The notes under the pieces are model-generated. The model worked only from the letters and a program-made list of their open reading frames with translations. It ran no database searches and had not been told where the DNA came from. A DNA stretch of 64,000 nt from assembly GCA_012519815.1 (NCBI GenBank), contig JAAYPM010000112.1:2330-66329 (forward strand), in the 5' to 3' direction. The DNA is from Bacteroidales bacterium (GTDB taxonomy: Bacteria; Bacteroidota; Bacteroidia; Bacteroidales; UBA1715). Below are positions 4,064 to 43,129 of the stretch, piece by piece. Position numbers and translations under genes: made by a program. Numbering within the stretch: the first letter of the stretch is position 1; the number at the start of each line of letters is the position of its first letter.

Positions 4064-5143
4064 ATGTTTAAAAAATTAGATTTTTATATAATTCGTAGGT
4101 TTCTTGGAACGTTTTTTTTCTCGATAGTTATTATAATGGCTATTGCTATTGTATTTGATATTCAAGAGAAATTTGACGATTTTATTACAAAAAAGGCTCC
4201 GCTTAACGAAATCGTTTTTGATTATTATCTTAATTTTATTCCGTATTATGTAAATCTATTTAGCAGCTTATTTGTATTTATTTCGGTTATTTATTTTACC
4301 TCAAAAATGGCAAATGATAGCGAAATTATTGCAATTCATGCAAGTGGTATAAGTTTTAACCGTTTTTTACGCCCCTACATATTTGCCTCATTTATTTTAG
4401 CGGTATTGTCGTGGTTATTAATCATGTATGTAATTCCCGATTCTAATAAAATTCGCTTAGAATTTGAAGATAAATATGTGTTTTCTCGTATGCAAAATTG
4501 GGAACAAGATATTCATCGGCAGGTGCGACCGGGCATTTTTATTTATATTCGAAACTATAATGTTGACACAGAAAGTGCTTTTCAATTTTCTATGGAAAAA
4601 TTTGAAAACGGAAAATTAGTGTCAAAATTAAATAGTGCTCATGCACGCTGGAATGCCGAAATAGAAAAATGGCAGGTGTATGATTATTACATTCGTAACA
4701 TTACTGCTCATGGCGATTCTATTATAAAAGGGAGCGTAATAGATACGGTGTTTTATTTAACGCCCGAGGATTTTAAACAACGTACGGTGTATGTAGAAAA
4801 ACTAACATTAACAGAATTAAATGAGCAAATAGAAATTCAAACACTACAAGGCACAAGTACTGTAAATTTATTGTTGGTGAATAAATATCAACGTTGGGCG
4901 TATCCATTTTCTACGTTTATTCTCACAATTTTAGGCGTAAGTTTAGTTAATAAAAAACGAAGAGGTAGTACGGTAATAAATGTAGTTATAGGACTTATGC
5001 TTATGTTTACATATATTTTATTTATGCAAATTTCCACCACTTTTACTATCAAAGCCAGTCTTAATCCAATAATTGCAGTGTGGATTCCTAATATTGTATA
5101 TGCATGTATTGCATTATATTTATATGTAAAGGCTAAAATTTAA
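4064..5143 (+). CDS. LptF/LptG-family (YjgP/YjgQ) LPS export permease
   Basis: 359 aa with multiple TM segments and a large central periplasmic loop. It starts 4 nt after the tgt stop. Family pattern recognised by eye. Confidence 0.8.
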   Translation: MFKKLDFYIIRRFLGTFFFSIVIIMAIAIVFDIQEKFDDFITKKAPLNEIVFDYYLNFIPYYVNLFSSLFVFISVIYFTSKMANDSEIIAIHASGISFNRFLRPYIFASFILAVLSWLLIMYVIPDSNKIRLEFEDKYVFSRMQNWEQDIHRQVRPGIFIYIRNYNVDTESAFQFSMEKFENGKLVSKLNSAHARWNAEIEKWQVYDYYIRNITAHGDSIIKGSVIDTVFYLTPEDFKQRTVYVEKLTLTELNEQIEIQTLQGTSTVNLLLVNKYQRWAYPFSTFILTILGVSLVNKKRRGSTVINVVIGLMLMFTYILFMQISTTFTIKASLNPIIAVWIPNIVYACIALYLYVKAKI

Positions 5144-5193
5144 TTACCACATAAACATAATTCAAGTAAATAGCATTAGCATATAACAATGTG

Positions 5194-6432
5194 CTAATTT
5201 GTTAGCATATGTGCAAAATCACGATAGTTTTTTTCCGCATTATAGCGTGTTTGCCATGTTGCGTATGCATTATTTCGCATATGAGTTTTTTGCTGAGAAT
5301 CTAATGTGGCAATACGTGTAATTGCATCTGCTATTTCTTGCACACTTGTTTGAGCAGGAAGCAAATAACCATTATGCGAGTCGGAAATAATTTCATTCAC
5401 CCCACCTACATCTGTACCAATACAAGGAATGCCAAAACTCATGGCTTCCATTATTGATACTGGAATGCCTTCTGATGAACTCACATTAATAAATACATCA
5501 ACATGATTTTTTGCATAAAATTCTAAAACTTCTTGATTTGTTTTTTGCCCTGCAAATGTATATGAGCAATTAGTTTTTTCTGTAAGATATTTTGCACTAA
5601 GAGATTCTAAATCACCTCTAAGATGCCCATCGCCAAAGTGAATCCATTCAATAGGCAGAGAGTCAATGTTTGCAAGAGCTTCAATAATTTTGTGCACTTG
5701 TTTTACAGGAATAAGATTAGAACACGATATTATACGAATTGTAGTGTCGGTTTTGGACGGACAAACGCCAGCAGATAGTACTCCTAAACGCGACATATAC
5801 ATTTTATGACGAAGATTTGGAAATAGCTGAGAATAATACTGTTCCCCTGCATTTGAAATAAACCAAATACCATCTGAATGTTCTAAAATATAGTGCCGAA
5901 ACGGTAAATATTGAGCAACATTTGCTTCAAAATATACATCCCACCCATGTGCTCGTGAAATACAGCGAGTAAACGCATGTTTTGTGTGGAGTTTTGTAAG
6001 CGTACATGCCATATCGTTTGCCCAATACGAATATGCATACAGAGCATCAGATTTATGTGTACATGCACTAATAATTTTAGAAATTTTAGAACCAATAACC
6101 TTTGTTTTATGAAGTGTTTGCAGTGCCGTTAAAATCTGCAGTTTAGAAAACGATTTTTTATATGTTCGTCTAATAATTCGTAATTCTTTATAAAAAAGCG
6201 GATTACATAATTGTATAAACGACATGCATTTTTGTATGCGCGATAATTCATATGAAACTTGTGTACATGTAACAGTATCAGGCACATTTCGAGTAATAGT
6301 GTCGTGAGTATTGTTTGAAATCAGTATAATACGGTCAAATGTTTCGGCAAGATACTGTATTTCATGTTCAATAAATGTTTCTCCTGTGCCGTACGGAAAT
6401 GTTGCAGTGCAAAAAATAAGAACGCGAGCCAT
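5194..6432 (-). CDS. Glycosyltransferase, GT-B fold (family 4-like)
   Basis: 412 aa. C-terminal donor-binding motif EGIPVSIMEAMSFGIPCIGTDVGGVNEII. Confidence 0.8.
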   Translation of the reverse strand: MARVLIFCTATFPYGTGETFIEHEIQYLAETFDRIILISNNTHDTITRNVPDTVTCTQVSYELSRIQKCMSFIQLCNPLFYKELRIIRRTYKKSFSKLQILTALQTLHKTKVIGSKISKIISACTHKSDALYAYSYWANDMACTLTKLHTKHAFTRCISRAHGWDVYFEANVAQYLPFRHYILEHSDGIWFISNAGEQYYSQLFPNLRHKMYMSRLGVLSAGVCPSKTDTTIRIISCSNLIPVKQVHKIIEALANIDSLPIEWIHFGDGHLRGDLESLSAKYLTEKTNCSYTFAGQKTNQEVLEFYAKNHVDVFINVSSSEGIPVSIMEAMSFGIPCIGTDVGGVNEIISDSHNGYLLPAQTSVQEIADAITRIATLDSQQKTHMRNNAYATWQTRYNAEKNYRDFAHMLTN

Positions 6433-6697
6433 ATATATAAATTATTGTACAAATTATATAAAAATATTTGAAATTATTGGTAAATAAAAAAAAATTTATA
6501 TGTTTGCAACTGCAATACACATGATGCTATGAATTTTTTTATACAATGTAATATGTTTACTTGATATGAAGAACTTTTTGTTTTTCTCATATACTATATA
6601 TTGGAAAAATAGGGAGTTTATATTTTCTTCTCTCGTACTCATCGAAAATACCACGGTACCTGCCGCAAAAACAAGTATAAACATAAAAAAAATCACC

Positions 6698-7489
6698 ATG
6701 AAAAAAATTTGTTTTTTTATAAGTATTGTATGCTTTTTTCAGTGTAAACATGATGCTGGTCTTTTAGGTGAAGACAGCGGTAATTTTGCATTGGTAATAT
6801 CATATGATAAAGAAATGATATCACATCAAAATAATTCTCAAATAACTGATACTTCATTACTTAGCTTTTCTGATAAAATGAAAGAGACTCCTCAAATTTC
6901 TCGTGAATATTGGGACATAAAAGTGAGGAAAAATGGAACATGTAGAATGGAAATGACACAAAGAACGCCTACCATCTCATTTGGAGAAACTCCAAGCCTT
7001 GCACGTGATATGAATGCCGAAATTCATAAAATTATATATGATAACAATGAAGCGTATGTGTTTAATAATTCAAATCGCCTTATGTACACATTTCCATTTG
7101 AATGTCCTGATATGACAGACGTTCTTGAACGATATCAAGGAGTTTGTGCAGATACATATACTGCTTCTAACGAAGTATTAAAAAGTAGAGTGATTCCTGC
7201 ATCTCATATTCAAATAACTGATAATCAGTTTTATTCTGAATCTATGGGAAATTTAACAGAACGTGTTTTTTATGACACCGTTGCACAAGTTCTTGTAAAG
7301 AGCGAATTGTATGATTCTGTGTTTACCATGATAGGAAAAGATACCGTTGCATATGAAGAGCTTGCTCCCGGTCATTTTGTGCCCATATTTGAGGGTTATA
7401 CATCGTATCTTGTAAATACGTTTGGACAACCATATACTCATGAAAGCTTTACTACTTATTTGAATGTTACTGTAGTTTCAAATGAATAA
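6698..7489 (+). CDS. Hypothetical lipoprotein
   Basis: Lipoprotein signal MKKICFFISIVCFFQC at the internal Met. The ORF-track start at 6566 adds 44 non-signal residues. No recognisable domain. Confidence 0.6.
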   Translation: MKKICFFISIVCFFQCKHDAGLLGEDSGNFALVISYDKEMISHQNNSQITDTSLLSFSDKMKETPQISREYWDIKVRKNGTCRMEMTQRTPTISFGETPSLARDMNAEIHKIIYDNNEAYVFNNSNRLMYTFPFECPDMTDVLERYQGVCADTYTASNEVLKSRVIPASHIQITDNQFYSESMGNLTERVFYDTVAQVLVKSELYDSVFTMIGKDTVAYEELAPGHFVPIFEGYTSYLVNTFGQPYTHESFTTYLNVTVVSNE

Positions 7490-7519
7490 AAAGTATGTGC
7501 AATTTTAAAATATAAAGAA

Positions 7520-8935
7520 ATGAAAAAAAGATATATATCAATTATAGTGGCCTTATTATCATGTGTTTATGGCGCAATGGCACAAGGCGTAGACAATGCT
7601 CCAGCAGTTGTATTTCTTCATGGTATGAATGGAAGTGCATCAAGTCTTATGTTTCATTATTATCGAATCAATAATTATCAAAAAATACACTTAATTAATC
7701 GTGCAACAAAAATATATAGTCCTATAGAATATCGTTCGGTTATGGGTGTTGAAACATCTGCTTCTGATGTGGAAAATGTTATATATGGTTTTGATCGGAA
7801 TTTTTATAATCGTCCCAAACGAATTATTATTGCTCATAGTATGGGAGGACTTGTTGCTCGAAAATGGCAAGTAAATAAAAAATTTTCCTCAAATAAACAG
7901 GCTTACACGGGGCTTATTACTCTTGCAACGCCACATTCTGGGACTGCAATTGCGTCTCTTTTAAATTCAGAGCAAGGGGCACGTACTTTTCAAAGTAATA
8001 TGGAGTCTGCAACTAAAAGTATTCTTGAAGGAGCTATAAAAAACCCTGTAAATGCTATTTCAACAATTGTTAACGCAAAAATATGGGTAGCTATTCGAGC
8101 GACAACTGCATTGTTGCCTGGTTTAGAAAGATTGATTGGAAAAACATTTGAACGAGGAATAGAAGCAGCATTTAATTATATAAATTTATATGAAAATTAT
8201 ATTGTGCCAAAAGTTACCGGTTCTCATAGAGTGTTACGTGACTTGGCGTATAACTCAGATATTATTAAAACAATTCAAACTCACGATAAAAATGCGTGCT
8301 CCTTTCAATATGATACACTTACTTATAAAATAGCATTGTATGGTGATGAGATTGCACCGAGCGTGTTTCGTATGATTTCCGCATCGTTTTGGATAGATAA
8401 AAATAAACATAGATATGATGTTATGCCACATGATAAAATAGATGAAGATTTAATACATTTATTTAATGAACTGTCAGCATTTTTTCGTGTGAATGCCGAG
8501 CAAAACTTGCAAAGTATAAAATGGTATATGTTACCTAAAAAACGAGATGACTATAAAGAAAAATCAGCAGCTTGGACAAGAAGTGCAGATTATCTTAATT
8601 ATTCATTTCACTCTGTTTGGCAAAATTTATTAGGTTTAATTACGGTAAAGTATGAAACAAAGACAGTAACAAGTATCATTGGAGGCAGTAAAACTTATAG
8701 TATTCCACGAATTACAGAACTTCCTAATGATGGACTTGTGATTAAAGAATCTCAAATTGCAATGCAGGGTGCGTATGAGAAAAAATTAGTTGAAATTAAT
8801 CATGAAGAAATGAAAGTGCATAACGATGCTGGAAATGCATTAGAGAGAATTCTTTATGGACGAGACGAAGGATTGAGTCGGAATCCACAATTAAGTAAGC
8901 ATAAAGAATTTTTTCAATTATATGGTAAAAAATAA
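7520..8935 (+). CDS. Secreted alpha/beta-hydrolase, lipase-like, with a large internal insertion
   Basis: 471 aa with a signal peptide. Contains the oxyanion-type VVFLHGMNGS, the nucleophile elbow AHSMGG (Ser107) and LITLATPHSG. The candidate acid and base residues appear only near the C-terminus: NDGLV (Asp404) and INHEEM (His428). Confidence 0.65.
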   Translation: MKKRYISIIVALLSCVYGAMAQGVDNAPAVVFLHGMNGSASSLMFHYYRINNYQKIHLINRATKIYSPIEYRSVMGVETSASDVENVIYGFDRNFYNRPKRIIIAHSMGGLVARKWQVNKKFSSNKQAYTGLITLATPHSGTAIASLLNSEQGARTFQSNMESATKSILEGAIKNPVNAISTIVNAKIWVAIRATTALLPGLERLIGKTFERGIEAAFNYINLYENYIVPKVTGSHRVLRDLAYNSDIIKTIQTHDKNACSFQYDTLTYKIALYGDEIAPSVFRMISASFWIDKNKHRYDVMPHDKIDEDLIHLFNELSAFFRVNAEQNLQSIKWYMLPKKRDDYKEKSAAWTRSADYLNYSFHSVWQNLLGLITVKYETKTVTSIIGGSKTYSIPRITELPNDGLVIKESQIAMQGAYEKKLVEINHEEMKVHNDAGNALERILYGRDEGLSRNPQLSKHKEFFQLYGKK

Positions 8936-8968
8936 TTATTCTTTATTAATAATGTTAACACTTTAAAT

Positions 8969-10252
8969 ATGAATAAGTTTTTATTGTTTTACATCTGTTT
9001 TTTGTTAGCCTCGTGCACAGCGTGTAAAGAAAAACCTATAGAACCGTTTCAGTATAAAACAGAAATGGATTCTTTGTATTATAGAAATGGAATTTTGATG
9101 CAAATTCCGTATAAATGGCGTACTCCTATTTCTGACGAATATTATAAACGAGGGTATATTGATCAACCTACGTATTATAACAATGCCGCATTATCTTGTT
9201 TAACGTTTGATGGGAAAATACATTATGCAATGCTTGATGCTGCCAATGGAGAAAAACAATGGATGTCGTGTTTATCCGAACCTTATATTTATTATGAAAA
9301 TGCATTATTAAATTTTTCGCCTTTTTATCATGATAATGAAACCGTGATTTATAGTTATGATGATGTTATGTATAATCTTGATTTACGCACTGGCACTCAT
9401 GTGTGGGAAATTACACATCCAGAAGTGAGAAGTTGGGCTTCATTTTATCCAAGAATTACCGGAATAGATTCTGTGTTTTTTATTGCAGCTTGTCAAGCTT
9501 CTATTCCGCATAGAGTTGCAAATGCTATGTTTCGAGGAAATAAAGCAACAGGGGAGTTGGAGAAATTATTTATTGTAGAACAATTTGATTCAATTTATTC
9601 AGAAGCAATTGACATAACGCTTTCATTTCCTGCCAAAATTAATGATACTGTGTATCTTATGTGTGGTTACGAATTTCAAGGAGATGGTCGTATGGGACTG
9701 TTTAATACAGAAACAAAAACTTGGGTCTATAAAGATATAGACACTCCCGGACATGGTTTTATGGCTTCACATTATGTTGAGGGCGATAAATGTTATGTAT
9801 CAATGGCGGGCGCCACAATGCTTCAAATGGATATTATGACGGGCGAAATTCTGTGGGAAAATTTATTGGATTCGTTTATAAGTAATGTTGTGATTGTAGG
9901 GGATTATATTATGTGTGCGCAACCCGAATTTTGTTCTGACCCCGAACTTTGTCCAGAATCTGGACGTTATGCAGCTGTTAATAAACATACAGGAGAAACA
10001 GTGTGGGTGCGTACGGATATTTCTTCTGTATCGGTAAATTATTATTTACAGGAATTAAATGGAGTTGTGTATCATACTAATGGGCTTTTAGTTGCTGTTG
10101 ATGCCGAAACAGGAGAAATATTTTGGGAACTAAAACCAAATGATGGAGGTAGATTTAGTGATTATACGGTGGTTCCTGGTGTAAATGGGAAAAAAGGTCG
10201 TGTAATTGCACGGAGCGAACGATATGCATATTGTTATGAAGCAGTACGCTAA
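8969..10252 (+). CDS. PQQ-like (BamB-type) beta-propeller repeat lipoprotein
   Basis: Lipobox LLASC. Blade motifs recur: LDAANGEKQW, DLRTGTHVWE, DIMTGEILWE, NKHTGETVWV, DAETGEIFWE. Confidence 0.7.
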   Translation: MNKFLLFYICFLLASCTACKEKPIEPFQYKTEMDSLYYRNGILMQIPYKWRTPISDEYYKRGYIDQPTYYNNAALSCLTFDGKIHYAMLDAANGEKQWMSCLSEPYIYYENALLNFSPFYHDNETVIYSYDDVMYNLDLRTGTHVWEITHPEVRSWASFYPRITGIDSVFFIAACQASIPHRVANAMFRGNKATGELEKLFIVEQFDSIYSEAIDITLSFPAKINDTVYLMCGYEFQGDGRMGLFNTETKTWVYKDIDTPGHGFMASHYVEGDKCYVSMAGATMLQMDIMTGEILWENLLDSFISNVVIVGDYIMCAQPEFCSDPELCPESGRYAAVNKHTGETVWVRTDISSVSVNYYLQELNGVVYHTNGLLVAVDAETGEIFWELKPNDGGRFSDYTVVPGVNGKKGRVIARSERYAYCYEAVR

Positions 10253-33544: not shown

Positions 33545-34600
33545 ATGCGAATAATTCGATATGTGTTGTTTCCTTTTTCGTGCATTTATTGGTGCATTAC
33601 TTATATTCGAAATGTGATGTTTGATAAAGGAATTATTTCGCAATCGGCATTTCCAATTCCCATTATTTCATTTGGCAATATTACCGTAGGAGGAACAGGG
33701 AAAACGCCTCATACACAGTATCTTATTTCTAAATTGCAACATACACATTCTGTGGCAACATTAAGCAGAGGGTATAAACGTAAAACAAAAGGATATGTTG
33801 ATACAACACAAACAGAAATAACTCCTCAAATTATTGGTGACGAGGCTTTTATGACTCACAAAAATTTTCCAAATTGCATTGTTGCGGTTTGTGAAAAACG
33901 TGTTGTTGGAGTGCAATCAATTCTTACAAAGCATCCTCATATAAATTGTATAATTCTTGATGATGCGTTTCAGCATCGGCATATTTTACCCGGTTATCAA
34001 ATTCTTCTTGTTGATTATACTCGTCCTATTTGGAACGATTTTGTGTTTCCAACAGGGAATTTACGCGAAGGAACATATGCTGTTGCTCGTGCACATGCAG
34101 TTATAGTAACAAAATGCCCGTTTATTACCGATGATATAAAAAAAATGTGGAGAAAAAAATTGCGATTACAAGCACATCAAAAACTCTTTTTTTCATCTAT
34201 TTCGTACGGAAAACCATATGCAATGTTTTCAAAAAAACATGTTGATTCTTTATCAAAACTTCTTGAAAATAAGCATGTAATACTTATAACAGGTTTAGCA
34301 CGTGCCGATTCATTGTATCAATATATACAAACATATACCGCAAATTTAGTTCATTTTGAATATCCCGACCATTATGAATATACCACAACCGATATTGCTG
34401 ATATTGTGAATGCAACTAAAAATATATCGGAATATGTTATAGTAACTACCGAAAAAGACATGCATAAATTACATTTTGCAGGTTTGCCTGATACCGTTAA
34501 CGGATATGTGATACCAATAGAACCTACGTTTGACGATGAATCAGCTTTTTTACAGGAAATTACCAATTATCTTTCACAAAATTCACTTAAAAACCAATGA
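33545..34600 (+). CDS. lpxK: Tetraacyldisaccharide 4'-kinase
   Basis: P-loop GNITVGGTGKTP and ILDDAFQH. The start at 33545 (MRIIRYVLFPFS) is preferred over the ORF-track start at 33500, which overlaps sppA. Confidence 0.9.
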   Translation: MRIIRYVLFPFSCIYWCITYIRNVMFDKGIISQSAFPIPIISFGNITVGGTGKTPHTQYLISKLQHTHSVATLSRGYKRKTKGYVDTTQTEITPQIIGDEAFMTHKNFPNCIVAVCEKRVVGVQSILTKHPHINCIILDDAFQHRHILPGYQILLVDYTRPIWNDFVFPTGNLREGTYAVARAHAVIVTKCPFITDDIKKMWRKKLRLQAHQKLFFSSISYGKPYAMFSKKHVDSLSKLLENKHVILITGLARADSLYQYIQTYTANLVHFEYPDHYEYTTTDIADIVNATKNISEYVIVTTEKDMHKLHFAGLPDTVNGYVIPIEPTFDDESAFLQEITNYLSQNSLKNQ

Positions 34601-35181
34601 ACTTTTTAGCACATTCATTTTTATCGGGACAAAATAATTTTATACTTATTGGTAATTTTATTGGAGATTTTGTAAAAGGGAAACAGCACGAAACATATCA
34701 AAAAGAAATACAACAAGGTATTCTTTTACACAGATTTATTGATAGTTTTACCGACAACTCGGCTATTACAAAAGAAAGTAAAAAAATATTTGCTTCAGTG
34801 TATGGAAAATACGCTGGAATAATTGTAGATATTATATATGATCACTGTTTATCGGTGCATTGGAATTCTTATACACATGTTCCTCGCAAATTATTTATTG
34901 CACATGTGTATAAAACTTTATCGGTCTATCATCATATTTTGCCGCTTCGGGCACAGCAACTTATTATTTCAATAATACATCATAACTGGATGCAATATTA
35001 TGTGTCATTTTATGGTATAAAAACCGTGTTGCAAAAAATGGCAACTCGCACAACTTTACCAGAACATTCAGATGAATGTGTTCAAATTTTGAGAGATAAT
35101 TATGCAATTTTGAATGAACAATTTCAAGAGTTTTTTCACTCTATTCTATTAGAACTCAATTTTACAACAACGAAAACGTAG
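34597..35181 (+). CDS. acpH: Acyl carrier protein phosphodiesterase
   Basis: 194 aa. N-terminus MNFLAHSFLSG...GNFIGDFVKG is typical of AcpH. It overlaps the lpxK stop by 4 nt. Its last 161 bp lie inside direct-repeat copy A. Confidence 0.85.
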   Translation: MNFLAHSFLSGQNNFILIGNFIGDFVKGKQHETYQKEIQQGILLHRFIDSFTDNSAITKESKKIFASVYGKYAGIIVDIIYDHCLSVHWNSYTHVPRKLFIAHVYKTLSVYHHILPLRAQQLIISIIHHNWMQYYVSFYGIKTVLQKMATRTTLPEHSDECVQILRDNYAILNEQFQEFFHSILLELNFTTTKT

Positions 35182-35246
35182 ATAAAATTTCAATGATTTT
35201 GTCCTTTTTAATAGGTTTTGCAATATAATCGTAGCAACCTAAATCT
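35021..35246. repeat. Direct repeat copy A (226 bp): functional acpH 3' end plus an orphaned copy of the hybrid-kinase 3' end
   Basis: Aligns without gaps to 39392-39617 at a constant offset of 4371, with 9 mismatches (about 96% identity). Confidence 0.95.
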
Positions 35247-35963
35247 CCTGACTTCGTCAATGCGACACCCATTTAAGATTGATTCCAAAAATCAATTTCA
35301 AACAGTTTAGAAATTAATTTGTGTTTTTCTATTATTAGCATAGTTTTAGAGATTGTTTCGTTGCTTTCTTGTGTTTTATCCTTCTGAGTGTCAGAGAGCT
35401 AATCTAAATAACGATAAATCTTATTTAAATCAATATTTTCATCAAAATAAGACTTTAAATAATCGACTGTGGCAACTTTGCTTTGTGGTTGACATATACG
35501 AGATACAACTAAATGCTTCAGGATATCGTCGTTAATTTGATCAAAACCAATGTTTTTATAAATAGGATTTAATATTAATTGAGTTCCGTTTATTAAAATG
35601 TGTTTTATCTTATTTAAAAGGCCTTCTACAACAAGTTTTTCTTCTTCTTGACGAATATGGTCTAAGAACATATCACGTCCTTTAGTCTGTTCCGAAACCC
35701 ATTTTTTTCCTTGTGAATATAGATTATCAATTTCAACAGGATTAGAGTTTGTACCAATTGTTTTAAGATAGCGAATCTTGCCGTTACGTTTCTCGACAAT
35801 TACAACGGTTGTGCTTCCTGATCTATTTGGTTTTTTGCGAACATACATTCTCCAAATTTAGCTGATTTTTTCTTGCGACACCCAAAAAGGTACCGCAAAA
35901 TTTGCAATCCCTTAGTAATCATAACATTATAAATTTATAGAAAAATAAGTGATAAAGTCAGGA
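35246..35963 (-). mobile_element. Internally deleted IS remnant with terminal inverted repeats (IS1634/IS4-like)
   Basis: Tips TCCTGACTT (35246-35254) and AAGTCAGGA (35955-35963) are exact reverse complements. Only 718 bp lie between them, encoding a 149-codon transposase stump. Confidence 0.75.
35399..35848 (-). pseudogene. Truncated DDE transposase (N-terminal 149 aa only), IS1634/IS4-like
   Basis: The N-terminus MYVRKKPNRSGSTTVVIVEKRNGKIRYLKTIGTNSNPVEI resembles Bacteroidota IS1634-family transposases, which are several-fold longer. No DDE core is present. Confidence 0.6.
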
Positions 35964-35978
35964 GGTTGGATTTTCTGA

Positions 35979-36047
35979 CTTGGATATTTTAGTGCCTGCT
36001 TTTTTAAACGCTATGGTATAAAACCATCAGACTATATACGCAAATAA
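35979..36047 (+). pseudogene. C-terminal fragment of an AraC-family HTH regulator gene
   Basis: Translates to LGYFSACFFKRYGIKPSDYIRK*, the characteristic AraC second-helix tail. It is preceded by an in-frame stop and has no start codon. Confidence 0.5.
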
Positions 36048-36296
36048 ACAGTCCTCCATTTTAGTATAGACACCTTGTGTGTAAAATTGCGTGTTGTTAT
36101 TTTTTTGAAAATATTTTGTAGTCGCAAAGAATAATTTTATATTTATTGAAACAAATACCAAAGTCTGTTTTATGCGAAATCAAATAAAAATGATTAAATA
36201 TAAAATTAGATCACCTTAAAAAATAAAATTATTTAACAAAATAATTTTATGTGTAAAAGCTATTATATATAAGTAAAAATTTTTAAATTTTATAAC

Positions 36297-37358
36297 ATGA
36301 AAAAATATATTTCCATATGTTTATTAATGTTTAATATAACATTTATCTATTCTCAAATTCCTGAAAATGATGATAATTGGCAGCTTGAATTTGAGGATGA
36401 ATTTACTATACCAACATTATTAGATACTTATTATTCTCCTAGAGTTTATGTTAATTCTCTAATACATGGGGATTGTGCTGTGAGTTGTACACAAGAACTT
36501 CAATGCTATCAAAAAGCAAATATTGAATATCAAGATGGAATTTTAAAATTGGTTGCTAAAAAAGAAAGAATCTATGAAAGATTAAATGTATTTGAACCAG
36601 AAACCGCTATTTTAAGTGATGGTATACAAAACAAAAGATGGTTTGATTATACCTCTGGAGCAATAATGACACATTCCAGAGAATCCTATGGTTATTTTGA
36701 AATTCGATGCAAAATACCAAAAGGAAAAGGTTTTTGGCCTGCATTTTGGTTATATCACGATCCTGGTTGTAATAAAGGTCGGGAAATAGATATCTTAGAG
36801 TTAAATGGAGAAGCTTCTATTACTGCTAATAATTATGGTGCGACTATACATTATTCATATATTTCTGGTACTGAATGTAAAGGCGGTTCAAGTGGTATGC
36901 AAATTCAGAATTTACCAGATTTGTCACTAGATTATCATACATATTCTGTAGAATGGACTCCTAGTAAAGTATTGTTCTATTTAGATAATAAATTAGTGAG
37001 ATTTTTAAATCATACATACGTACCTTCTGAAGGTATGCATATTATCGTAAATTTAGCAATTGACCCATGGTATTCTCCAAATTTTTCTAATTTCGTATCG
37101 AAATCATTAGATATTGATTATATTAAATATTATAAACTAAAAATGGATTGTGGAGATCCAATTACCTCAAGCGAAGGTAATAACTTCAATTTCTCAAATT
37201 TTGATTATAAAGTAAAAAAATCATTTTCAATAAATAATTCAACACTAATTATAGGCTCTAAAGTTACATTAAGAGCAACAGATTTTATTGAATTTACTCA
37301 GAATTTTAATGTTCCAATTGGTGCTGAATTCAATGCAATTACAGTTCCGTGTCACTAA
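36297..37358 (+). CDS. Secreted glycoside hydrolase family 16 (beta-glucanase/laminarinase-like)
   Basis: Signal peptide, GFWPAFWLY, and the catalytic ExDxxE motif in GREIDILELNGE. The ~80-aa C-terminal extension ends VTLRATDFIEFTQNFNVPIGAEFNAI. Confidence 0.85.
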   Translation: MKKYISICLLMFNITFIYSQIPENDDNWQLEFEDEFTIPTLLDTYYSPRVYVNSLIHGDCAVSCTQELQCYQKANIEYQDGILKLVAKKERIYERLNVFEPETAILSDGIQNKRWFDYTSGAIMTHSRESYGYFEIRCKIPKGKGFWPAFWLYHDPGCNKGREIDILELNGEASITANNYGATIHYSYISGTECKGGSSGMQIQNLPDLSLDYHTYSVEWTPSKVLFYLDNKLVRFLNHTYVPSEGMHIIVNLAIDPWYSPNFSNFVSKSLDIDYIKYYKLKMDCGDPITSSEGNNFNFSNFDYKVKKSFSINNSTLIIGSKVTLRATDFIEFTQNFNVPIGAEFNAITVPCH

Positions 37359-37384
37359 TTAAATAATTTTAAAACTAAAGAAAA

Positions 37385-38369
37385 ATGAAAACAATTAATA
37401 TATTAATTACAACAGTAATTTTATTAATCAATGTAGATTTATATTCTCAAATCAATGTGGATAATGTTGGAGATGTCTCAATTGGACAGGTAATTTACAC
37501 AAAAAAACATAACTTAGGTTATCGTACAATAGAACTAAAATCTCCTAATTGGGATGGGGGATTTATAATTGATAAGTCAGGATATAATAGTATGTCAACC
37601 TTTAGACCTAATACAACTTGGTATGGGTCTCTAGGTACAAGTTCTTATCATTTTGGTGTTGGGTATATTGAACATATATATACTTGGATTTTAACGAATT
37701 ATTCAGATGAGCGATTGAAGGAAAACATTGAAAATATCGAAACTCCATTAGAAAAAATAATAAAATTAAATGGAGTCACATATAATTTGAAAGATTCTAA
37801 TAATATAGAACTTGAATCCAGCGAATATAAAGATCAATCTTTTAAAAAAAAGCAAATTGGTTTTCTTGCTCAAGATTTACAGACGGTTTTTCCTGATCTT
37901 GTTTTTCAAGAATCTGATTCTTCAGAATATTGTATTAATTATATTGGTTTAATTCCTGTGCTTGTTGAATCAATTAAAGAACAACAATCTATGTTAAATT
38001 GAGCAGGAACAGAAGATTAATGAGCTTACAAATTTGTGTAATAATAAAGATAAACAATTAAAAAGTGAAACTAATACAGAAATATTTGAAGATAATAAAA
38101 ATCAATTAAATGCTATTTTATATCAAAATCGTCCAAATCCTTTTGATAGTAAAACAGAAATATTGTGTACTATTCCATTAAATGCATCCTCCGCACAGTT
38201 ATTTGTATATAATTTAGAAGGAATGCAATTAAAAAAAATTGAGATTTTAGACAAGGGTGTTACAAGTATTATTATAGATGGTTCCGCATTGAAAGCAGGA
38301 ATGTATTTGTATACATTAGTTGTTGATAACCTTGAGATTGCAACAAAAAGAATGATTTTAACTAAATAA
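37385..38369 (+). pseudogene. Frameshifted gene: signal peptide, S74 intramolecular-chaperone (tail-fibre C-terminal) domain, coiled coil and T9SS type-A C-terminal sorting domain
   Basis: ORF 37385-38002 carries YSDERLKENIENI...GVTYNLKD...IGFLAQDLQTVFPDLV...LIPVLVESIKEQQ (S74 chaperone domain). Its natural continuation, IEQEQKINELTNL..., runs in the adjacent frame from 37998. ORF 38034-38369 in that frame ends with a T9SS CTD (LYQNRPNPFDSKTEI...LFVYNLEGMQL...GMYLYTLVV...KRMILTK). Confidence 0.7.
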
Positions 38370-38380
38370 TTAAATTAATT

Positions 38381-38941
38381 ATGAAAACTTTAATAAACCT
38401 TTCTCTAATTACACTCGTGTTTTTATGTTTTTTTTCATGCGATGAAAAAGTAGCCCCCCCCAAAAAAACTTATAATTATTTAAAATATAATCCACCAAAA
38501 GTATTGTATCCTAATGATTCAATTCTAATTGATTTAAACAACGATAATTTTAATGATGTGATAATTAAATCATTTTTATTTATAGACTTACCTGATACGA
38601 TACTTAAAAATACCATTTCTATTATTGATACTAGTTTTAAATTAAGTTATGGTCAAAGATATAGTAGTTATTTTGAATTTATTTTAAATGGTGATAGGGT
38701 AAATCCGCAGAATGTTCATTGGTCACAAGAAATACCTATAAGTGGCTATATTAATAGTGTGTCAACGGGTATCTGGAATGATAATAATAATGAAGATAAA
38801 TATTTAGCAATTTTAAAGTGTGATAATGAATTAGTAAAAATGGGTTGGTTAATGTTATCATGTACAGATTCTTCTATAACTTTAAAAGAATTTTATATGA
38901 ATAATATTTCTAATTCTCAAATTATTATTGGAACAAAATAG
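38381..38941 (+). CDS. Hypothetical lipoprotein
   Basis: 186 aa. Signal plus lipobox (LVFLCFFSC). No recognisable domain. Confidence 0.55.
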   Translation: MKTLINLSLITLVFLCFFSCDEKVAPPKKTYNYLKYNPPKVLYPNDSILIDLNNDNFNDVIIKSFLFIDLPDTILKNTISIIDTSFKLSYGQRYSSYFEFILNGDRVNPQNVHWSQEIPISGYINSVSTGIWNDNNNEDKYLAILKCDNELVKMGWLMLSCTDSSITLKEFYMNNISNSQIIIGTK

Positions 38942-38954
38942 CCATAATACATAG

Positions 38955-39131
38955 CTAAAACCGTTATGGGCAAGCTTTAAAAAACTCCTTTCAAAAACAG
39001 ACGATGAATGGTTTGACATAGTATGTGAATTAATTAACAATAAAAACACACGAAAAACAATAATTGAACGCTATTCTATTGATGCGTTTGTAGAAAAATA
39101 TATTGTTTTATTTCATAAACTTGTACAATAA
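38955..39131 (+). pseudogene. C-terminal fragment of a glycosyltransferase-like gene
   Basis: A 58-codon open frame without a start codon: ...DEWFDIVCELINNKNTRKTIIERYSIDAFVEKYIVLFHKLVQ*. It resembles the C-terminal tail of GT-B glycosyltransferases. Confidence 0.35.
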
Positions 39132-39190
39132 AGAAATCTTTATCGTATTTCTGAAATACTCCCTATTGTTAGGACAGTTTTGTTATCTTT

Positions 39191-39391
39191 TTAAGATAGC
39201 GAATCTTTCCGTTGCGTTTCTCGACAATCACAACGATTGTGCTTCCTTATCTATTTGGTTTTTTGCGAATATACATTCTACAAAATTAGCTGATTTTTAT
39301 TTGCGACACCCAAAAAGGTGTCGCAAAATTTACAAGTCCTTAGTAATCAGAGCATTATAAATTGACAGAAAAATAAGTGATAAAGTCAGGA
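39191..39391 (-). mobile_element. Second, 201-bp fragment of the same IS end (transposase 5' end plus terminal repeat), same orientation as the first
   Basis: Aligns without gaps to 35763-35963 (offset 3428) at roughly 90% identity. It ends in the same tip AAGTCAGGA (39383-39391), directly abutting repeat copy B. The transposase ATG is retained at 39276, but a stop occurs at codon 10. Confidence 0.85.
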
Positions 39392-39617
39392 AAACCGTGT
39401 TGCAAAAAATGGCAACTCGCACAACTTTACCAGAACATTCAGATGAATGTATTCAAATTTTGAGAGATAATTATGCAATTTTGAATGAACAATTTCAAGA
39501 GTTTTTTCATTCTATTCTATTAGAACTCAATTTTACAATAACGAAAATGTAGATAAAATTTCAATAATTTTATCTTTTTTAATAGGTTTTGCAATATAAT
39601 CGTAGCACCCTATATCT
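39392..39617. repeat. Direct repeat copy B (226 bp): orphaned acpH 3' end plus the functional hybrid-kinase 3' end
   Basis: See copy A. This copy supplies the last 28 codons and stop of the 39533-43129 gene. Confidence 0.95.
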
Positions 39618-42600
39618 TCAGCAATTGCACGTTCAGCATTCAAATCAAATGCCGAAAGAATTACAATAGAAACATTTTTATTATGGCGTAAAATTTCTTT
39701 GCTTGCTTCAAAACCGTCCATAACGGGCATTTTAATATCCATAAATATAAGTTGAATAGTAGGGTTTTTTAGAAACAATTCAACAGCCTCTTTTCCTGTA
39801 TGTGCACGTATAACGTGTATGTGAGCAAAAGCAAGAAGAGTTTGTATATATAAAAAATTTATATCATCATCTTCGGCAACCAACACTGTGTGTTCATCTT
39901 GTGTAGCAATTTGAGTGTCTTTTGTTGCTGTTTTTGTTTCTGTGAATGTGTAAGGAATAGTAAAATAAAATGTTGAACCTTCCCCTTCTGTTGATTCAAC
40001 CCACATTGTTCCACCTAAAAGAGAAGCAATTTTATATGAAATTGCCAAGCCTAAACCTGTGCCTCCATATTGCTTTGTTTGTGCATCTGTAATCTGCTGA
40101 AAACGTTCAAAAATAGCACTTTGATATTTTTGTGGTATTCCAATACCTGTATCTTTTACAAAAAATACAATGTGCTTATTTTCCAATACATATCCCACTT
40201 CAATAGAGCCAGAATCGGTAAATTTAATGGCATTACTCATTAAATTTAAAACAATTTGTTTTATGCGAGTTTTGTCAGATATAATTGAAGCTTCAGTGTT
40301 TTTTAATCCATGAGAAATACGTAGTTGCAAATTTTTTTCTTGTATTTGAGGAGCAAAAAAATCGGTAGTTTCTTGAATGAGTTCATGTATATTTACTGTT
40401 TCTGAATGAATATACAATGTATTGCTTTCAATTCGGGATATATCTAAAATATCATTTACAACTACCAATAATTGTTTACTGCTGCTAATTACTATGTCAG
40501 CATATTTTTTGCGTAATTCAAAACTCAAATAGGGGTCTTTTAAAAATTCGGCAAAGCCAACTATACCGTTCATTGGAGTGCGGATTTCATGGCTGATATT
40601 TGCTAAGAAAACCGATTTTAATCTATCACTTTCTTCTGCTTTTTCTTTTGCTGACACAAGGTCTTCGAGCAATAATTTTTTTTCAGTTACATCTTCATTA
40701 ATAGCAACAAAATGAGTTATTTCTCCTTCGGCGTTAATAATAGGGGTAATTAAACCTTTTTCCCAATACAGTTCGCCTGTTTTTTTTATGGTTTGAAATT
40801 CGCCTTCCCAATCGTTTCCTGAAGTAACCGTTTCCCAAATATTTTTATAAAATGCTTCTGATTGTGTTTCTACCTTAAAAAAAGAAGGTTTTGTTCCGAG
40901 TACCTCATCAATTGTATAGCCACTTATTTCACAAAATTTTGCATTTACATATTCTATATCTCCATTATTATTTGTAATAATAGTACTTACCGGACTTTGC
41001 TCAATAGCTTTACTTTGTAAAATAGTTTGTTTAAGTGCTTCTTTTTTGTCGGTTACATCATGCACAATAGAATGTGTATATACCGTTCCTTTTATTTCAA
41101 TAGGACTGCTATATACTTCTACATCACGAATTGTTCCATCTGCTTTTCGGTGCTGAAAATCAAAAAAAGTGAGGTTTTTATCTTGTGCTTCAACAACTTT
41201 TTCCACAATTTTGTCATACGAAAGTGTATCAACTTCGGTGATTTTCATTTTTAAAAACTGTGCTTTATCCCACCCGTAATAATCAACAGCAGCTTTATTT
41301 ACATTAATAATATCGCCGCTCATAGGTTCAACAAGAAATTGAATAGCGGTATGGTCTTCAAATTGTTTTCTATATATTTCTTCGCTTTCTAAAAGTGCTA
41401 ATTCTGTTTGTTTCCGTTCAGATATATCTTCTATATATCCTTCAATAGCAATTATGTTTCCATGTTTATCAAATACACCATTTCCACGTTCCCATACCCA
41501 TTTTATGGTTTCGTTTTTACACACAATTCTGTATTCAAGCAAAAAGCTCTCTTTATTTTTAATAGCAGTTTTAATTACTTTATTTACATATTCAGCATCA
41601 TCTTTATGGGTAATTGAATTGTATGTTACTGATTTACTTATAAAATCAAAAGGAGTATATCCAGTTAGTTCGGTAACCCCAGAACTAACAAATTCCATAT
41701 GCCAATTTTCATCATACGTACCATGATAAAACATTCCCGGCAAATTAGAAAACAGCGACTCTAATTTACGATTGCTTTCTTCGAGTTCTTGTAATATTTG
41801 TCGTTCTTTAGTTTGATTATGAATCACAAATACAAGTCCGGTAATTACAGAATTATTGTCTCTAATAGGAGCAATACTTTCGTTTATAGGAATACTTTGT
41901 TGTTGATGTGTGCGCAGTTGAGCATGATATAGTGTGTGTTTTTTTCCTGTTGTTATTACATGTTGTATAATTTCGGAATGTGTGCTATTATTTTGTTCTT
42001 GTGTTATCGTAAATAAATCATCAATATATTTATGCTTAGCCTTTGCTTCAGTACAACCTATTAATTCTTCGGCTATACCATTCACATTTTGTACTATACC
42101 TAATTCATTTGTTACAATTACAGCATCGCCAATACTATACAACATAGTTTTATATTGTTCTTGTAGCATATACATTTTTTTATACATGCTTTGCTTTTTA
42201 TTTGACTTTTGCAGCAAAAACACAAACACAAAAAGCAACACCACAACAATGAAAAGAACAATTATATATATTTGAGATTCAATTTGTTGGGCATAAAATT
42301 CATCGGCAGGTAAAATAGTATATATATAAAGATTTGTATGCTTTATATTATGTACCACAAATAAATCTTGTTTTTTAAATAATGAGTTTTTTTGAGAAAC
42401 TTGCCCTGTATATAAATTGTTTTTTTTAATAGAATCAAGTACGCTATACGACATAAAAAAGGAATCATGCGAATAGCGTTCGATTTTATGTGTTGCATAA
42501 TTATAGTGTACTAAAGAAGAATTTGCTTGAAAAAATATATTTGTGAATGTACTTCGAGATACATCTGTAAGTGTTTTTTGTGCAAGTGTTTTTTTGATTG

Positions 42601-43129
42601 TTTGAGAAACAGCATGTTGAAAAACCAAAAAACCTAATCGTTCATCTGCTTCGGAAAATAAAGGCACCACAAAATCAACTACTATAAGTGAGTCTGTATT
42701 ATAGTATATATCAGAAACATGTACGGTTTGTTTCGAAATAGTTTCATATTTTACATCATAGTTAAATTGCAATTTTGCTATTCTTTCTGATTCTGAAGAA
42801 AAAGAAGAGTCTATAAAAAAGATACTTGCAATATCATGTTCTTCGGCTATAAGAGAAAGGAATTTTTTTATTTGTACATAATTTTTCTCAGAAAAATATT
42901 GAGAAACAAATGTTTGTATATATGGATTCTGAGCCAGTAACTTAGCATCGGCAATTTCATCCATATACCAATCAGATATTTGCTTCGATTTTAATGAATT
43001 AACAGCCGAAATATATGAATACGTGTTTGATTTAAATGCAGCATTTTGATGTTGAATATATACCCAAACACCTCCACATAAAAGTAGAAAAACAGCAATA
43101 AATATGAATGTTGTTTTATTACGAAACAT
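39533..43129 (-). CDS. Hybrid sensor histidine kinase/response regulator with a periplasmic sensor domain and multiple PAS domains
   Basis: 1198 aa. Two TM segments flank a ~260-aa periplasmic region, followed by about four PAS/PAC units, the H-box ANISHEIRTPMNGI, an HATPase (GGTGLGLAISYKI) and a C-terminal receiver (LIFMDIKMPVMDG). No DNA-binding output domain. Confidence 0.9.
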   Translation of the reverse strand: MFRNKTTFIFIAVFLLLCGGVWVYIQHQNAAFKSNTYSYISAVNSLKSKQISDWYMDEIADAKLLAQNPYIQTFVSQYFSEKNYVQIKKFLSLIAEEHDIASIFFIDSSFSSESERIAKLQFNYDVKYETISKQTVHVSDIYYNTDSLIVVDFVVPLFSEADERLGFLVFQHAVSQTIKKTLAQKTLTDVSRSTFTNIFFQANSSLVHYNYATHKIERYSHDSFFMSYSVLDSIKKNNLYTGQVSQKNSLFKKQDLFVVHNIKHTNLYIYTILPADEFYAQQIESQIYIIVLFIVVVLLFVFVFLLQKSNKKQSMYKKMYMLQEQYKTMLYSIGDAVIVTNELGIVQNVNGIAEELIGCTEAKAKHKYIDDLFTITQEQNNSTHSEIIQHVITTGKKHTLYHAQLRTHQQQSIPINESIAPIRDNNSVITGLVFVIHNQTKERQILQELEESNRKLESLFSNLPGMFYHGTYDENWHMEFVSSGVTELTGYTPFDFISKSVTYNSITHKDDAEYVNKVIKTAIKNKESFLLEYRIVCKNETIKWVWERGNGVFDKHGNIIAIEGYIEDISERKQTELALLESEEIYRKQFEDHTAIQFLVEPMSGDIINVNKAAVDYYGWDKAQFLKMKITEVDTLSYDKIVEKVVEAQDKNLTFFDFQHRKADGTIRDVEVYSSPIEIKGTVYTHSIVHDVTDKKEALKQTILQSKAIEQSPVSTIITNNNGDIEYVNAKFCEISGYTIDEVLGTKPSFFKVETQSEAFYKNIWETVTSGNDWEGEFQTIKKTGELYWEKGLITPIINAEGEITHFVAINEDVTEKKLLLEDLVSAKEKAEESDRLKSVFLANISHEIRTPMNGIVGFAEFLKDPYLSFELRKKYADIVISSSKQLLVVVNDILDISRIESNTLYIHSETVNIHELIQETTDFFAPQIQEKNLQLRISHGLKNTEASIISDKTRIKQIVLNLMSNAIKFTDSGSIEVGYVLENKHIVFFVKDTGIGIPQKYQSAIFERFQQITDAQTKQYGGTGLGLAISYKIASLLGGTMWVESTEGEGSTFYFTIPYTFTETKTATKDTQIATQDEHTVLVAEDDDINFLYIQTLLAFAHIHVIRAHTGKEAVELFLKNPTIQLIFMDIKMPVMDGFEASKEILRHNKNVSIVILSAFDLNAERAIAEDIGCYDYIAKPIKKDKIIEILSTFSLL

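Follow-up and report, generated by a model that had tools for sequence, protein, structure and literature searches.

We analysed a stretch of 64,000 nucleotides from a Bacteroidales bacterium (NCBI GenBank assembly GCA_012519815.1, contig JAAYPM010000112.1, positions 2,330 to 66,329 of the forward strand), hereafter the window, which carries a 4,144-bp insert (35247-39390) edged by remnants of an insertion sequence (IS) and lying between two convergent genes. The first of these, acpH (34597..35181, plus strand), encodes an acyl carrier protein (ACP) phosphodiesterase (PF04336, 211 bits) and is intact. The second, a gene for a hybrid sensor kinase/response regulator (39533..43129, minus strand), is likewise intact and encodes a protein of 1198 amino acids (aa) with PAS, HisKA, HATPase_c and Response_reg domains.

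A repeat search showed that the insert is enclosed by the two copies of a direct repeat, D1 (35020-35246 and 39391-39617), which match over 227 nt without gaps at an offset of 4371, with 9 mismatches (96% identity). The left copy of this target (T) sequence, TL (35020..35246), consists of the acpH tail, comprising the final 162 nt of the gene, and a non-functional kinase tail, and carries a haplotype that we call w. The right copy, TR (39391..39617), consists of a non-functional acpH tail and the functional kinase tail, comprising the final 85 nt of that gene, and carries haplotype X. With 162 nt of one gene end and 85 nt of the other in the repeat, the two genes would overlap tail-to-tail by 20 nt in the single-copy state, and both are intact after the insertion because the duplicated stretch contains the 3′ ends of both. 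The same search returned a second direct repeat, D2 (35761-35963 and 39189-39391; 203 nt, 91% identity). A preliminary description of this DNA had given the gapless match, the 9 mismatches and the offset of D1 as we find them. It had started the repeat one base short, at 35021, giving 226 nt in place of 227, and had counted 161 nt of acpH where there are 162, its figure of 85 nt for the kinase gene being right.

The uninterrupted form of the site was found in several lineages. Conspecific strains (L011, L012, L017 and L158-L160) have an empty site in which acpH and the kinase gene overlap by exactly 20 nt, the single-copy state that had been predicted, and the AcpH encoded by L011, L012 and L017 is identical to that of the window. 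The junction is also uninterrupted, with a 20-nt overlap, in a sister lineage (L018-25, eight assemblies; AcpH 93% identical), and in more distant relatives (L026-28; AcpH 69% identical) an uninterrupted convergent junction has an overlap of 4 nt. The alignment to related genomes proposed in the preliminary description thus yielded empty loci in L011, L012, L017, L018-L028 and L158-L160. The kinase has the same length in the empty-site loci as in the window, and its C-terminus is identical to that of L018. The empty-site contigs have single-nucleotide polymorphisms (SNPs) of their own and are not chimeras of the two copies. Because the empty site occurs in conspecifics, in the sister lineage and in a distant relative, the insert is, on this distribution, derived, and it is polymorphic in the population.

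At least five independent assemblies cross the insert, and the 149-aa transposase stump described below is present on 16 contigs. One 115-kb contig from another sample and strain (L001) follows the window collinearly through the whole arrangement, with 98.8% identity over 20 kb. The left junction is crossed by L002/13, L003 and L014-16, and the right junction by L119 and L120. The longest exact match between the D1 copies is ~60 bp, shorter than the k of 141 that contig names of the form k141_... suggest for these assemblies. Logan contigs all begin at 35207; with a graph k of 31, which we take to be the Logan value, a break at this position fits the first TL-specific base at 35237. All 4,144 bp are present or absent as a whole, and they are SNP-free between strains whose flanks differ by ~1.3%.

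Insertion-sequence remnants and cargo

Both edges of the insert are formed by pieces of one IS lineage. On the left, IS-B (35247..35963, minus strand; 717 bp) has its R tip at 35247, the outer end of the unit, and its L tip at 35962, in the interior. Alignment by blastn with full-length relatives showed that it corresponds to IS positions 1-598 joined to 1561-1685, with ~962 bp lost internally; its identity to the full-length relatives L116, L112, L110, L133 and L148 is 78-85%. On the right, IS-A (39189..39390, minus strand; 202 bp) is an L-end fragment that corresponds to IS positions 1-202, encodes transposase residues 1-31 and has its L tip at 39390, the other outer end. Its orientation and tip are those of IS-B. 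The tips CCTGACTT/AAGTCAGG stand at 35247, 35962 and 39390, and the perfect terminal inverted repeat of the IS remnant measures 8 bp, or 9 bp with the flanking T/A included. Beyond IS-A and IS-B, no further IS pieces and no intact transposase were found in the 64-kb window. The remnant reported earlier, with its stump of 149 codons, is therefore present, at 717 rather than 718 bp and with a 9-bp inverted repeat only if the T/A is counted. The second IS-end piece, at the right copy, has the orientation and the tip ascribed to it, with 91% identity and a length of 202 bp against the 201 bp claimed.

The transposase stump (35399..35848, minus strand; 149 codons) comprises the N-terminal part only. 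It has no match in Pfam, and its only match in NCBIfam is NF033559, the IS1634 family (E 3.6e-7, profile positions 3-106 of 483), at 29.6 bits, a score that for this fragment lies below the cutoff of 100 bits. Homologues that extend beyond the stump and share 66-84% identity with it reach 130-205 bits against the same profile, and full-length relatives of 514 aa score 373-380 bits and have a DDE_Tnp_1 domain. The stump is 84% identical to residues 1-161 of one of the latter, the L116 transposase, which scores 380 bits. The IS1634 family has the end consensus C-----YT and an element length of 1500-2000 bp (PMC2266710), and the tips CCTGACTT agree with this consensus. By the scores of their close relatives and by their own ends, the window IS remnants are assigned to the IS1634 family.

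The nearest homologue of the stump (83% identical, 181 aa; P0002, L029-L038) is itself dead, a remnant that is fixed in conserved surroundings in another Bacteroidales genome, and a further homologue (P0004) is fused to a HepT-toxin fragment. Remnants of the IS lineage are frequent in termite-gut and digester Bacteroidales.

The cargo between the two IS pieces has a GC content of 26.4%, compared with 29.9-38.1% in 108 background windows, and a tetranucleotide distance of 0.032, compared with 0.015 ± 0.002 in the background, which places it ~7 standard deviations out, a value as extreme being found in 0/108 windows. The composition check suggested in the preliminary description thus returned an outlier, and the cargo is compositionally foreign.

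Five features make up this cargo. A 3′ fragment of an AraC-family regulator gene (35964..36047, plus strand; ~28 codons, frameshifted) is cut by the IS-B L tip; its earlier assignment holds, with a match to the C-terminal end of HTH_18/HTH_AraC (E ~1e-5) that stays under the gathering score, the fragment being short. A CTGACTT motif at 35975, considered as a further IS tip, was rejected, as it represents the codons of the conserved AraC 'GFSD' motif. The GH16 glycoside hydrolase gene (36297..37358, plus strand; PF00722, 75 bits) is intact, as had been stated, and its closest relative away from the window locus is 58% identical. It is followed by a gene for an S74-domain protein with a sorting signal of the type IX secretion system (T9SS) (37385..38369, plus strand; PF13884, PF18962, TIGR04183), in which the reported frameshift was traced to a single extra A at 37996 (AAA vs AA) that splits the gene into 37385-38002 and 38034-38369. 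The split allele is found in the window and in L119, L120, L122, L123 and L125, and an intact 327-aa allele in L001, L003, L004, L121 and L126. Because the intact and frameshifted forms are each found in several samples, the indel is a genuine polymorphism, with function present in some strains and lost in others, in an insert that is otherwise free of SNPs.

Of the last two features, the gene for a 186-aa protein (38381..38941, plus strand) does have the signal-peptide/lipobox-like N-terminus expected from its earlier label of lipoprotein gene, and the protein has no family match in Pfam or NCBIfam. The identity of the 58-codon open reading frame fragment (38955..39131, plus strand), which the preliminary description had called a glycosyltransferase tail, could not be confirmed: nothing significant was found in Pfam, NCBIfam, tblastn against plasmids or PDB, and the best match, to the C-terminus of TarM/GT1, had an E value of ~0.9. 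A trio of genes for GH16, an S74/T9SS protein and a protein of ~200 aa also occurs, in the same order and with a 58% identical GH16, in a contig from an unrelated metagenome (L129, 145-2900), which suggests that the trio is a conserved secreted glycan-degrading module; its third gene is assigned to no family.

Long direct repeats across the IS lineage

A scan of species-representative genomes yielded 80 loci of the IS lineage, in Bacteroidota (L041-L118). At 58 of the 80, the same tips, TCCTGACTT...AAGTCAGGA, lie ~1.68 kb apart, and full-length relatives measure 1681-1687 bp. The repeat survey comprised the 47 full-length copies with at least 100 bp of flank and the tips CCTGACTT...AAGTCAGG. 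Direct repeats of 31-789 bp (median 99) abut both tips in 30 of these 47 copies (~64%) and are perfect in 25 of the 30. One further copy has an 18-bp repeat, and no direct repeat was found in the other 16. When left flanks were paired with the right flanks of other loci as a control, no repeats were obtained (0/184). This cross-locus pairing was used instead of a shifted-boundary control, which was unsuitable (22/123 false matches, still inside long repeats). The largest repeats, of 743 and 789 bp, both exceed the published maximum of 514 bp, and we found no description of long direct repeats in the Bacteroidota IS1634-family clade in the literature.

The bases next to the tips are also shared. 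T precedes the L tip in 47/47 copies, and A follows the R tip in 37/47. Read on the minus strand, the window unit begins with CCTGACTT and ends with AAGTCAGG, with T before, A after and the 227-bp repeat in the same register. The T/A bases at the repeat ends suggest that the same local preference operates at both of the widely spaced joining sites.

The IS1634 family is the one family for which long, variable target duplications are documented: two of its members, IS1634 and IS1549, make direct repeats of 8-514 bp on insertion, and 5-6 bp are typical of the family (PMC2266710). The 227 bp of the window agree with these atypical long-repeat members and not with the 5-6-bp norm. Because IS1634-family elements make long duplications and 30 of the 47 relatives carry them, 227 bp is not too long for a target duplication. 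The view taken in the preliminary description, that 226 bp is far too long for a target-site duplication, is contradicted both by this published range and by the 31-789 bp seen in the relatives.

One surveyed locus, on the complete chromosome of Limibacterium fermenti me31 (L042, NZ_CP159486.1:3198472-3209251), holds a tandem array D-IS-D-IS-D at 4143-9737, in which the three ~741-bp D copies are 100% identical and the two 1,685-bp IS copies are identical to each other. The array has the appearance of a long target duplication that unequal crossover has amplified. Six IS copies retrieved from this cultured strain are either identical or one base apart. Its inner IS-D-IS is a ready-made composite transposon. 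Among 108 loci, no tip-bounded cargo unit with abutting repeats was found other than this array.

Variant forms of the lineage were also noted. They include a 420-bp element resembling a miniature inverted-repeat transposable element, with both tips and no direct repeat (L150 198-617); solo L-end fragments of ~232 and ~660 bp (L151 292-523 and L154 493-1151), which resemble the 202-bp piece of the window; two IS copies in tandem, 26 bp apart (L100 127-3519); and an L tip duplicated 19 bp upstream of the real tip (L080 4866/4885).

To judge by the survey, duplications of long and variable length are normal for the Bacteroidota IS1634-family clade and not an oddity of two elements. A wider proposal, on which our judgement is evenly balanced, is that members of this clade routinely join their two ends at independent T/A-flanked positions up to ~0.8 kb apart. 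Gene ends would then be duplicated and insertions could be gene-sparing, and the repeats would afterwards serve as portable homology for amplification, precise excision and flank-by-flank allele exchange. If this is true, the clade offers natural insertions in large number, together with a cultured host whose live copies are identical, as material for solving the mechanism of long duplications. IS-detection and annotation tools that expect duplications of at most 15 bp will miss or misread insertions with long repeats, and such repeats will break short-read assemblies.

Alleles of the repeat copies and origin of the insert

The two D1 copies were compared with the alleles of the empty sites. 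TR equals the empty-site allele of L158 at 227/227 positions, and the identity extends 4,301 bp beyond it, with 0 mismatches through 43691. Full-length AcpH proteins with the exact C-terminus of TR (...ECIQ...FTITKM) are present in the 90% AcpH cluster, and their loci, L158, L159 and L160, are empty sites. TL equals the L011-type empty allele except at 35228-9, which are private to L011, and at 35237A and 35242A, which are private to TL. On this comparison of alleles, seven of the nine D1 mismatches are standing allelic differences between two co-circulating haplotypes, the L011-type and the L158-type. The TL-private changes, C>A at 35237 and T>A at 35242, are 10 and 5 bp away from the R tip of the IS and are found in all filled strains and in no empty allele. 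Import of a foreign allele, as considered in the preliminary description, explains the mismatches, in that the copies represent two population haplotypes, but it does not explain the duplication itself.

Recombination is also evident in the flanks. Sharply bounded tracts in lpxK (33748-34543) and acpH (34713-34997) differ by 4-5% between otherwise identical strains, and the combinations of these tracts differ among L001, L011, L018 and L158. Judged by these tracts, homologous recombination is very active across the window locus, and the flanks are mosaic among strains. One flank was probably replaced by homologous recombination after the insertion; because the flanks are mosaic while the unit is SNP-free, an insertion followed by allelic replacement of one flank is the simplest reading. 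Alternatively, L158 could have reverted from a filled allele by precise excision, if TL and TR crossed over within their first 60 bp. In L003 (JGI 3300010365), TL carries X alleles at 35139 and 35168 only, which may represent gene conversion, the remainder of a left copy that was X-type at first, or a mixture of reads in the assembly. A single reciprocal crossover, i.e. Campbell-type re-integration of the unit as a circle with one T copy, is refuted, because it predicted that X would carry A,A at T positions 218/223, and L158, L159 and L160 carry C/T and T.

We consider it likely that 35247-39390 is a composite, now non-autonomous IS1634-family transposon flanked by a long target duplication. 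On the minus strand of the window, the proposed unit runs from the L tip through IS-A (202 bp), 3.2 kb of cargo (the possible glycosyltransferase tail, the 186-aa gene, the S74/T9SS gene, GH16 and the AraC tail) and the internally deleted IS-B to the R tip. A transposase, supplied in trans, or in cis while IS-B still had its ~960 bp, would join the outer L and R tips to target positions 227 bp apart, one in acpH and one in the convergent kinase gene. Repair synthesis would copy the 227 bp between the joining positions, and later homologous recombination would exchange one flank for another allele as far as the boundary of the insert, leaving w on the left and X on the right. We infer birth of the duplication in one transposition event, movement of the unit as one piece, and which of the two flanks was replaced. 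Features of a composite transposon are present at the locus: the cargo lies between two IS copies, both defective, whose outer ends form an inverted L/R pair, and the duplication surrounds the whole 4,144-bp unit, for which the empty site is known. The preliminary description, too, had seen an IS-bounded mosaic insert with the repeat as a duplication of the target, and this part of it agrees with our results. By such a route, the long duplication would have let a 4-kb element land in a 20-nt overlap of convergent genes without inactivating either gene, and the element would have brought a foreign module of GH16, S74/T9SS and 186-aa protein that is polymorphic in a biogas-reactor Bacteroidales population.

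Several points weigh against this interpretation. Neither an intact transposase nor a full-length IS copy with more than 85% identity was found in the window or in any of the collections searched; with the intact transposase missing, mobilisation has to be set in the past or ascribed to a transposase acting in trans. Neither the unit at a second genomic site nor a donor locus was found in the genome scan or in a metagenome scan with a 20-nt tip; these scans gave only other insertion sites and IS relatives, the latter 78-88% identical. Nor was a filled allele recovered whose two T copies share one haplotype. The TL-private changes at 35237 and 35242 are not accounted for by this history and may stem from repair at the junction, from neutral mutation of the non-functional kinase tail or from a haplotype outside the sample. 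Among the relatives, the 16/47 copies that are free of a direct repeat make long repeats frequent, not universal. Finally, for the mechanism of long duplications in the IS1634 family, the 2008 review of IS4/IS1634 records no model (PMC2266710).

The alternative that survives best, which we nevertheless regard as improbable, invokes two independent IS insertions in the same orientation, 227 bp apart, on two chromosomes, an X-type chromosome being hit in acpH and a w-type chromosome in the kinase tail. The two IS copies would then recombine to give acpH-T(w)-IS...IS-T(X)-kinase, with both genes restored. Such a course predicts the w and X copies directly, with no later allelic replacement, and its product is indistinguishable from that of a long target duplication by sequence alone. 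However, it needs two gene-disrupting insertions, DNA of two strains in one cell and extra steps for the 3.2-kb cargo, and the later allele swap that it avoids is cheap, since ordinary recombination makes flank mosaicism throughout the locus. Its half-states would have an IS tip between 35019 and 35020 without TL (...TTATGGTATA joined to CCTGACTTCG) or between 39617 and 39618 without TR (AAGTCAGG joined to TCAGCAATTG); the more than 30 contigs of the window locus, in which no junction-specific search was made, showed no such allele. Nor can staggered double insertion be the general origin of the repeats in the lineage, since 25 of the 30 long repeats in the relatives are perfect and the literature reports that they form upon insertion. 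We therefore find it less parsimonious than a long target duplication.

Doubtful too, and ranked just behind, is a history in which a single IS transposed with a long duplication and the cargo came later, e.g. by recombination between the resident L-end and a cargo-linked L-end, so that the unit never moved as a composite. The position of the cargo between two direct copies of IS positions 1-202 is the footprint expected of one such crossover, and the whole unit is known from a single location. Yet the L-end copies are just 91% identical and would make a poor substrate for homologous recombination, and the AraC fragment meets the inner L tip at the T typical of the family, which resembles the junction of an ordinary insertion that took place elsewhere and was carried along. 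In addition, no strain with the IS alone, i.e. without the cargo, was seen at the window site.

It is very unlikely that the T copies were identical at birth and that the 9 differences are mutations in place, arising by slow decay or by damage or repair errors during gap filling. The pattern of the differences at first appeared to favour such an origin: in a first polarisation against the empty sites, the five TR-specific changes were all GC-to-AT transitions and lay within 63 bp, and the two TL-specific changes are no more than 10 bp away from the IS tip. All changes in the kinase tail are synonymous. Against this, uninterrupted loci (L158 and L011 type) carry seven of the nine states as standing alleles, there are no differences from L158 over the next 4.3 kb to the right, the changes are sharply clustered relative to the adjacent kinase gene (against L018, p ~1e-5), and the unit is SNP-free among strains, so that mutation in place covers at most the two changes private to TL. 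As X-type empty alleles were found, gap-filling errors such as deamination of single-stranded DNA were rejected as the source of the mismatches at these seven sites.

An assembly chimera, or a site-specific integrative element with the 227-bp repeats as att sites, is the least credible alternative and scarcely so at all: direct repeats at gene 3′ ends do resemble attL/attR and short-read contigs do break near these repeats, but each junction is crossed by several independent assemblies of different samples, L001 spans everything, no integrase or recombinase gene or domain was found among the open reading frames of the unit, and the repeats end exactly at canonical IS1634-lineage tips.

Comparison with known systems

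IS1634 of Mycoplasma mycoides and IS1549 of Mycobacterium smegmatis resemble the window IS in transposase family, judged by the NF033559 scores and the DDE_Tnp_1 domain of its full-length relatives, in the end consensus C-----YT and in their long variable repeats. The window differs from both in its host, a member of the Bacteroidota, in holding a decayed composite with cargo rather than a simple IS, and in having repeat copies of different haplotypes.

Tn6097 of Paracoccus ferrooxidans consists of two copies of ISPfe2, an IS1634-family element; an experiment captured its transposition, which came with a 6-bp duplication (PMC3281130). Like the window unit, it is a composite with IS1634-family ends and passenger genes. 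In contrast to its two intact convergent IS and 6-bp duplication, the window unit has defective pieces in direct orientation and a 227-bp duplication, and its movement as a unit is proposed rather than captured.

More generally, in compound transposons and non-autonomous IS derivatives, two outer tips suffice in cis, and the duplication flanks the whole unit. Classical compound transposons make duplications of 2-14 bp and disrupt the target gene, whereas the long duplication of the window regenerates both of the interrupted gene ends.

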